A stretch of 64,000 bases of DNA from a virus (IMGVR_UViG_3300042375_000763:16191-80190), one strand, 5' to 3'. Numbered from the stretch's first letter, positions 51,903 to 52,171 are shown. A program made the numbers and translations. The notes: a model not told the origin generated them from the sequence alone.

Positions 51903-51919
51903 CTAAATTGTCAAAGAGC
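51903..51919 (-). promoter_or_regulatory. boxA directly after the attenuator 2 terminator
   Basis: GCTCTTTGACAATTTAG. Confidence 0.7.
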
Positions 51920-51922
51920 AAT

Positions 51923-51956
51923 AAAAAACCCTCCGAGGATTTTTCCAGGAGGGTTC
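51923..51956 (-). terminator. Intrinsic terminator of attenuator 2
   Basis: AACCCTCC..GGAGGGTT followed by a U tract. Confidence 0.85.
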
Positions 51957-51985
51957 TAAAACTATATACTTATTTGCATAAGATA

Positions 51986-52045
51986 TCAGTCTCGGGAACC
52001 CTCCCAAGTCATATATTCCTCAAATTTGCAAATAAAGTAAGTCAT
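51986..52045 (-). CDS. Leader peptide of tRNA cluster 2 (MTYFICKFEEYMTWEGSRD)
   Basis: SD GAGGA; GGAGGGTTC in the ORF complementary to terminator arm GAACCCTCC. Confidence 0.85.
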   Translation of the reverse strand: MTYFICKFEEYMTWEGSRD

Positions 52046-52069
52046 TTTAGTCCTCTGTTTTGTTTTAAT

Positions 52070-52122
52070 CTGGATGAGCTTGGTTTTGTATATCAAACAA
52101 TTTTAGTTGCTGTATTCATCCA
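52070..52122 (-). ncRNA. Motif RNA, copy 8 (5' of leader 2)
   Basis: TGGATGA-A-TACAGCAA...TCATCCA-G. Confidence 0.7.
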
Positions 52123-52132
52123 TTATTTGGTT

Positions 52133-52171
52133 TATTTATATAATATATACTGATTCTGTGTGTTTGTCAAC
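52133..52171 (-). promoter_or_regulatory. Tandem early (TTGACA/TATATT with GAATC) and late (TATAAATA) promoters for tRNA cluster 2
   Basis: GTTGACAAACACACAGAATCAGTATATATTATATAAATA. Confidence 0.75.

Follow-up and report, generated by a model that had tools for sequence, protein, structure and literature searches.

A candidate leader-peptide attenuator in front of a tRNA operon of an uncultured T4-related lake phage

Why and when phages use the tRNA genes they carry is an old question; it has been proposed that these genes compensate for codon usage, make up for host tRNAs that have been degraded, or help the phage to evade defences that cleave tRNA. Here we ask what decides whether one such set of genes is transcribed, namely an operon of eight tRNA genes for seven amino acids (~1.1 kb) in the virus sequence IMGVR_UViG_3300042375_000763:16191-80190. 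This stretch of 64,000 nucleotides, referred to below as "the window", is a 64-kb part of an 80-kb IMG/VR virus record, whose completeness is estimated at ~40%. The segment directly in front of the operon (positions 51903-52171) is quite likely a ribosome-mediated leader-peptide attenuator that links tRNA supply to decoding speed, and the phage probably makes these eight tRNAs only when ribosomes decode the matching codons slowly. An attenuator had been proposed here in a first-pass annotation of the DNA, and this reading is supported by folds in which the bases covered by a ribosome are masked, by the match between leader codons and tRNAs, and by the recurrence of the design in other loci and at a second attenuator of the same genome.

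Which parts does the segment contain? Read along the minus strand from 52170 to 51903, it comprises a promoter, a short translatable leader open reading frame (ORF), an intrinsic terminator and a boxA-like element, followed by the tRNA genes (Table 1), so that the order described in the first-pass annotation was recovered with every part in place. The same is true of the 9-bp perfect complementarity between the arm GGAGGGTTC (52004-51996) and GAACCCTCC (51956-51948) of the terminator, and of the hairpin CTTAT-GCAA-ATAAG that caps the structure (51982-51969). Ten "sensor" codons had been placed immediately before the arm; the matched run does exist (codons 3-12), but it does not adjoin the arm, from which it is separated by 5 nt (a Thr codon and TG). 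The terminator is a GC-rich hairpin followed by six T residues (51928-51923), and the 21 nt between this T-run and tRNA-Ile are occupied by boxA. The fold of the leader region has a z-score of -3.4. A covariance scan of positions 49000-54000 against Rfam returned only tRNA matches and sub-threshold noise, and no T-box; the leader peptide has no Pfam or PHROG family context.

The folds indicate how these parts could work as a switch. Bases were masked from the 5' end to 12 nt past the first base of the codon in the ribosomal A site. The untranslated RNA (-46.7 kcal/mol) forms the terminator, and its codons 2-7 pair with the neighbourhood of the cap hairpin. When codons 5-10 occupy the A site, a helix of GGGAGGGTTC (52005-51996) and GAACCCTCC(T) is obtained, which is extended by the capped inner stem; this antiterminator is the minimum free energy (MFE) structure both of the nascent RNA (-29.3 kcal/mol) and of the full leader including the 3' arm of the terminator, arm 4 (-35.6 kcal/mol). 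At codon 3 the antiterminator is obtained in the nascent RNA only, at codon 11 it is partly occluded, and from codon 12 (Met) onwards, where the ribosome occludes half of the arm, up to the stop codon only the terminator remains. These outcomes by codon define an opening stall window at approximately codons 3-11, which corresponds to the run Tyr-Phe-Ile-Cys-Lys-Phe-Glu-Glu-Tyr. A local hairpin predicted at 52008-51991, like the pairing of codons 2-7 with the cap region, is a candidate for an early pause element that would keep RNA polymerase and ribosome in step.

The codons in and around this stall window match the genes that follow. Codons 3-12 are confined to the seven amino acids of the operon, all seven of which are represented, and each sensor codon can be read by an anticodon of the operon under standard wobble rules. 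For 18-residue peptides drawn from the phage's own amino-acid usage, in which the seven-residue set sums to 34%, a run of ten residues from this set has P ~1.5e-4, and a run that also covers all seven has P ~7.5e-6. Among the 1211 short ATG-initiated ORFs of the 80-kb record such a run occurs once, in this leader.

Table 1. Position of the features described in the text (window numbering, unless an accession number is given)
Feature	Position	Strand	Remarks
Sigma-70-type promoter	52142..52170	-	TTGACA 52170-52165, 17-nt spacer, TATATT 52147-52142; 11/12 matches
Copies of the 25-mer promoter	24406-24430, 30517-30541, 52146-52170, 52339-52363	-	
TATAAATA, T4-late-promoter-like motif	52133..52140	-	just 3' of the -10 box
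Hairpin in the 5' untranslated region (UTR)	52071..52122	-	GGATGAA...CTCATCC stem; in MFE and centroid structures
Shine-Dalgarno site GAGGA	52051..52055	-	5 nt 5' of ATG
Leader ORF, MTYFICKFEEYMTWEGSRD	51986..52045	-	19 codons + stop
Sensor codons 3-12	52010..52039	-	Tyr Phe Ile Cys Lys Phe Glu Glu Tyr Met
Antiterminator	51947..52005	-	GGGAGGGTTC with GAACCCTCC(T), plus inner stem; from masked folds
Cap hairpin	51969-51982	-	CTTAT-GCAA-ATAAG
Intrinsic terminator	51923..51956	-	AACCCTCC...GGAGGGTT stem + T6; free energy -13.8 kcal/mol
boxA-like element, GCTCTTTGACAATTTAG	51903..51919	-	no gap to tRNA-Ile (51902)
tRNA operon	50811..51902	-	Ile(gat) Tyr(gta) Phe(gaa) Glu(ttc) Lys(ctt) Lys(ttt) Met(cat) Cys(gca)
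Other three boxA 17-mers	24372-24388, 27942-27958, 30444-30460	-	before tRNA or non-coding RNA clusters, without terminator
Second attenuator	31201-31400	-	TATAAATA 31399-31392, leader, strong bidirectional terminator
Second leader	31264-31362	-	32 codons; ends 33 nt 5' of terminator; T-run near 31206
Leader-like ORF of phage nt-1	NC_021529.2 ~97818-97931 (= L242:8819-8932)	-	unannotated, 37 codons
Leader-like ORF of phage KVP40	AY283928.2 ~178804-178917 (= L389:2539-2652)	-	unannotated

From these data we infer the following course of events in vivo. Transcripts would start at the 52170 promoter, and possibly at TATAAATA late in infection, and would carry the 19-codon ORF. With fast translation or none, GGGAGGGTTC (codons 14-17) would be covered by the terminating ribosome or folded locally; with this segment unavailable, the terminator (51956-51923) would form and the tRNA genes would stay off. 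If charged tRNAs for Tyr, Phe, Ile, Cys, Lys or Glu become scarce, a ribosome should stall at codons 3-11, leaving GGGAGGGTTC free to pair with the emerging GAACCCTCC, which is the 5' arm of the terminator. Readthrough would then lead to transcription of boxA, and host Nus factors would probably be recruited for processive transcription of the untranslated 1.1-kb operon. The tRNAs made would be those whose codons had stalled the ribosome, which would close a negative feedback loop. What makes charged tRNA scarce in the first place may be the codon demand of an AT-rich genome, decay of host tRNAs, tRNA-cleaving defences or amino-acid starvation, all of which we regard as candidates.

Does transcription enter the operon in any other way? 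The first-pass annotation saw no promoter between terminator and tRNAs, and our scan of the minus strand agrees, with no promoter-like site (at least 9/12 matches to the sigma-70 consensus) and no TATAAATA between 51903 and 50800. A weak promoter-like match inside the attenuator itself (51989-51961, 9/12) was discarded as being at chance level (34 such matches found vs 30 expected). Upstream, the 25-mer promoter sequence TTGACAAACACACAGAATCAGTATA is conserved in four copies in the window, where none is expected by chance, and two of these copies lie less than 200 nt apart upstream of the attenuator locus. TATAAATA occurs 14 times in the window vs 5.5 times expected, a count reached in none of 100 shuffles; 11 of the 14 copies are on the coding strand, and the motif is found also 5' of the second leader (31399-31392) and of the leaders of several related loci. 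Judging from the known T4 consensus and the T4-like character of the phage, TATAAATA may function as a late promoter.

The boxA-like element lies 3' of the terminator, as had been noted from the sequence, and abuts tRNA-Ile. Its 17-mer has four exact copies in the window, all of which head tRNA or non-coding RNA clusters. The core GCTCTTTGACAA agrees at 11/12 positions with GCTCTTTAACAA, which we take to be the consensus of the E. coli rrn boxA, i.e. there is one difference. Among eight genomes checked, the exact 17-mer was found ~200 nt 5' of a 16S rRNA gene in two bacterial ones, a member of Hyphomicrobiaceae and Lacipirellula (L280, L341), and no rRNA gene was present in the 8-kb locus around the 17-mer in the other six. 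An exact-pattern scan of viral contigs returned 56 loci with the 17-mer, mostly with tRNA arrays directly behind it, and in several of them a short ORF and a terminator lie in front. The position of boxA would fit the loading of a Nus-type complex only after readthrough, an idea of the first-pass annotation for which the sequence identity to rrn-leader boxA is the basis; boxB and boxC elements were not identified at the phage boxA. We also considered boxA as a promoter (it contains an inner TTGACA and a TGCTCTT that resembles a MotA box), and rejected this possibility because the four copies share no -10 element at a usable distance and because the start would fall inside tRNA-Ile. The element could not be used to assign a host, since the 17-mer is found across many phyla. 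The 17-mer stands before tRNA arrays in dozens of uncultured phage contigs (L008-L063).

The operon itself has several unusual features. Both Lys tRNAs (anticodon ctt, 51382-51467, 86 nt; anticodon ttt, 51286-51373, 88 nt) and the Cys tRNA (gca, 50811-50892, 82 nt, minus strand) have long variable arms, which is unusual for these acceptors, and neither Lys tRNA reaches the Rfam tRNA threshold. Long spacers within the operon (51552-51660, 51176-51286 and 50892-51105, minus strand) fold into hairpins with GATG-like starts. The first-pass annotation had listed a "motif RNA copy 8" between promoter and leader; such a repeat family was not reproduced, short-word BLAST giving only marginal matches of 15-19 nt, and the spacer hairpins may be what was meant by the term. 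Another repeat, a 22-mer, is present at 27928 and 30496, and is not found at the attenuator locus.

Is the design unique to this position? The same genome contains a second attenuator (Table 1), in which a promoter and a boxA-like sequence GCTCTTTGAAAC follow 3' of the terminator, and then tRNA-Thr and a large tRNA region. Apart from the start residue the second leader has 31 residues, 28 of which fall within the 13 amino acids for which the downstream region supplies tRNAs, and none of these 13 is missing. The split of the amino acids between the two leaders follows that between the two tRNA regions (Fisher test of two leaders vs two amino-acid sets, p = 9e-5 with the whole leaders, p = 8e-6 with the sensor part).

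Direct homologs of the 19-codon leader were sought in viral and metagenome contigs with a pattern made from three arms of the structure; the invariance of the arms among the homologs is therefore no evidence of conservation, because the pattern had fixed them. The identical peptide was found in at least eight other lake contigs with diverged flanks, preceding operons in which the same set of tRNAs is arranged in other orders: Lys-Ile-Glu-Phe-Met in the L245 group, Cys-Ile-Tyr-Phe-Met-Glu in L264, and Ile-Tyr-Phe-Glu-Lys-Lys-Met-Glu-Ile-Cys in L255. The 57-nt coding part of the ORF is identical at the nucleotide level in the window, L266 and L245, and L264 differs at codon 2 only. Divergence is seen in the promoter region, 5' UTR, inner hairpin and terminator loop; in L245, L264 and L244 compensatory changes maintain the pairing of the inner hairpin, and the inner pairs of the terminator covary among nine homologs, for which RNAalifold predicts the terminator only. 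A purine-rich Shine-Dalgarno site is present in all homologs. In the L244 group the leader has the same length, with Trp and Thr added among the sensor codons, and the operon includes tRNA-Trp and tRNA-Thr. Three of the five homologous loci retain the stem of the 5' hairpin while the loop varies, e.g. the loop is unrelated in L266 and L264; the stem is absent from L245 and L244. Nearly identical DNA is present in ~20 lake-water metagenome DNA runs, and two metatranscriptome runs contain small shares of the stretch only. The contigs of these two runs include a relative's leader ORF, in which Glu9 is changed to Lys, still within the set, as well as relatives' terminator-boxA-tRNA-Cys junctions.

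A broader family was collected by scanning the fetched loci for a hairpin with a T-run, tRNAs at most 450 nt 3' of it, and an ORF ending 20-45 nt 5' of it. The scan returned 30 distinct leader/terminator/tRNA cases from uncultured phages, and likely false positives were retained in the tests. On average 0.42 of the leader residues belong to the amino-acid set of the leader's own operon vs 0.318 for shuffled pairings, and 0.968 of the operon amino acids are present in the leader vs 0.79 for shuffled pairings (z 5.9 and 0/20000 in both cases). The switch was assessed for a ribosome positioned 12 codons short of the stop codon: 75% of the bases of the terminator 5' arm pair with the segment covered by a terminating ribosome, vs 39% when this segment is shuffled (Wilcoxon p = 2.8e-6). 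In most cases the stop codon and the terminator arm lie 26-33 nt apart. The design is clear in L059, L147, L197, L219, L033 and L054. L162 contains three different leaders, each matching one of three operons; one of them, R-L-H-T-Q-L-L-E-Q-P-R, precedes tRNAs for Pro, Glu, Gln, His, Leu, Leu and Arg. Another conserved type of leader, with a G-S-(S/E)-N-P-G motif, stands before a terminator, promoter and boxA in L021, L025 and L027; the clusters behind it include tRNA-Asn and tRNA-Ser, which lead the cluster in L021 and L027.

Judging from its gene content, the source of the window is a T4-related phage. It encodes T4-type topoisomerase II subunits, a gp32-type single-stranded DNA-binding protein and a CCA-adding enzyme, and its closest cultured relatives are the KVP40-like Vibrio phages (48% amino acid identity in the large topoisomerase subunit). 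The window has a GC content of 37% and carries 35 tRNA genes and a tmRNA gene on the minus strand, with none on the other strand. The tmRNA gene (10173-10584, minus strand) encodes the tag ANENFAPKAFALAA, and a tRNA with the amber-reading anticodon CTA (20401-20476, minus strand) is called as Pyl by ARAGORN. Near the tRNA regions, on the minus strand, lie the genes for the CCA-adding enzyme (62821-63951), an RNA-repair nucleotidyltransferase of the RlaP family (33889-34785) and a DUF2828/DUF7788 protein (56623-58086).

A search of cultured-phage DNA with the locus as query gave only generic tRNA matches. The neighbouring phosphoesterase gene led to 59 related loci, which provided no comparison because the closest ones (81% amino acid identity) have only tRNA-Leu and tRNA-Met at this place, without leader or terminator; synteny via the other neighbouring gene yielded one distant locus. 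Leader-like ORFs are found in the KVP40-like phages (Table 1). The one in nt-1 lies 3' of a TATAAATA motif and ends 30 nt before a terminator, which is itself 87 nt 5' of a cluster of 17 tRNAs, and it contains all 15 of the 15 amino acids of this cluster. The nt-1 leader region has 75-100% identity in 50 KVP40-like phages, and the frame is open in KVP40, D482 and phi-Grn1 despite substitutions. In KVP40 the only annotation at the leader site is an opposite-strand Glimmer ORF. In loci of the nt-1 type a promoter-like sequence lies 3' of the terminator, and we regard the nt-1 and KVP40 leaders as an experimental lead, not as evidence for the attenuator.

What would the phage gain from such control? 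The leaders may be counter-defence sensors: a host anticodon nuclease or some other defence that depletes tRNA removes e.g. tRNA-Lys, tRNA-Tyr or tRNA-Glu, the leader ribosome stalls, and replacement tRNAs are supplied in answer to the particular attack or imbalance. We put this forward tentatively, as a possible but rather doubtful purpose. The long variable arms of the Lys and Cys tRNAs might confer resistance; together with the RNA-repair and CCA-adding genes nearby they are compatible with a role in defence and do not establish it. If this interpretation holds, the separately sensed tRNA blocks would allow the phage to make only the tRNAs needed for each attack or codon-demand imbalance.

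Could the switch respond to translation as such, e.g. to host shut-off, with the identity of the codons being irrelevant? The logic of the folds needs only a slow ribosome, whatever the cause, and "pan" leaders with nearly all amino acids do precede very large tRNA arrays (L038, L015, nt-1). A general translation-status switch nevertheless leaves unexplained why leaders track their own operons, why distinct matching sets exist (two leaders here, three in L162), and why the 19-codon leader is invariant amid diverging flanks, and for this locus we consider it improbable.

Another objection is that the leader is simply a small gene that ends in a terminator of its own, that the tRNAs are transcribed from an unrecognised phage promoter, and that the codon match is coincidental. 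T4-like middle and late promoters do escape a sigma-70 scan, and a promoter is present 3' of the terminator in several relatives and in the other attenuator of this genome (31201-31400). At the locus studied here, however, only 21 nt filled by boxA separate the T-run from tRNA-Ile, and the TTGACA of boxA has no -10 element at a usable distance; nor is one consistently present at the other three copies. The coincidence, with P ~1e-5 at this locus, would have to recur across loci, and the C-terminus conserved in a peptide without Pfam or PHROG context is the part encoded by the RNA arm. We regard this explanation as very unlikely. Least probable of all is that promoter, terminator and what lies between them make up a small regulatory or structural RNA in which the ORF is incidental. 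In favour of this, the 5' hairpin is kept in three homologs and many structured non-tRNA spacers occur in the tRNA regions of this phage. Against it, the ORF, the Shine-Dalgarno site and the switch are present without the hairpin in L245 and L244, the frame, length and stop position of the ORF are conserved, and there is no Rfam match.

Several observations weigh against the attenuator as proposed. The operon has no tRNA for codons 2 and 13 (both Thr) or for codon 14 (Trp), and AAG, which Lys(ctt) reads, is not among the codons sampled. The CAT tRNA scores 25.8 bits against an Rfam threshold of 29 bits, and may be of the Ile2 type or the initiator type, not an elongator Met tRNA. Since stalling depends on the charged form of the tRNA, the switch would open under amino-acid starvation as well, when extra tRNA is useless. 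The description of the operon as "fully conditional" derives from consensus promoter scans, which covered the sigma-70 consensus, and a phage-specific promoter in or after boxA is possible. The family loci come from related phages that are not phylogenetically independent, and a crude rule (gaps of at most 700 nt) was used to delimit their operons. The contigs from RNA libraries that touch the region belong to relatives and are uninformative on transcription, on starts and ends, and on the strand. The phage is uncultured, and we know the locus from its sequence and computed folds.

If the attenuator reading is correct, the phage measures decoding speed for each codon set and supplies tRNA on demand. 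Leader-peptide attenuation would thereby extend from amino-acid and synthetase operons to RNA genes, with an added terminator-then-boxA logic, and leader sequences would reveal which tRNAs a phage treats as one functional unit. The related leader ORFs of the cultured KVP40-like Vibrio phages offer a laboratory system that is already at hand.

How does the locus compare with known systems? A full-text literature search did not turn up any account of tRNA genes controlled by a leader peptide, whether in phages or elsewhere. The closest parallel is provided by the enterobacterial attenuators (thrL with Thr/Ile codons, the ilvGMEDA leader with Ile/Val/Leu, as well as trpL, hisL and pheL), which, like the phage locus, combine a short translated ORF rich in regulatory codons with antiterminator and terminator hairpins that exclude each other; further shared features are an antiterminator 5' arm within reach of a ribosome at the stop codon, and termination as the default without translation. 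They control biosynthetic enzymes and sense runs of one or two amino acids, whereas the phage-encoded locus controls tRNAs, has boxA 3' of the terminator, and senses up to seven amino acids (more in relatives) with a one-of-each "barcode" that reflects which tRNAs the operon contains. In pheST of E. coli, with its pheM leader, and in the T-box systems of Firmicutes, genes of the translation machinery are likewise controlled by the state of specific tRNAs, and pheM also has Phe codons in its leader peptide; however, these systems control synthetase or amino-acid genes instead of tRNA genes, and the T-box binds uncharged tRNA directly, without a ribosome. The tRNA cluster of phage T4 resembles that of this T4-like phage in its clustered tRNA genes and interspersed small structured RNAs, and to our knowledge has no leader-peptide control. 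As in boxA/Nus antitermination of rrn operons, boxA heads a long untranslated structured transcript, but here it does so 3' of a conditional terminator and before phage tRNAs. The mechanism is thus that of classic attenuation, and what is new is the regulated tRNA genes, the barcode-like multivalent sensor and the phage setting.
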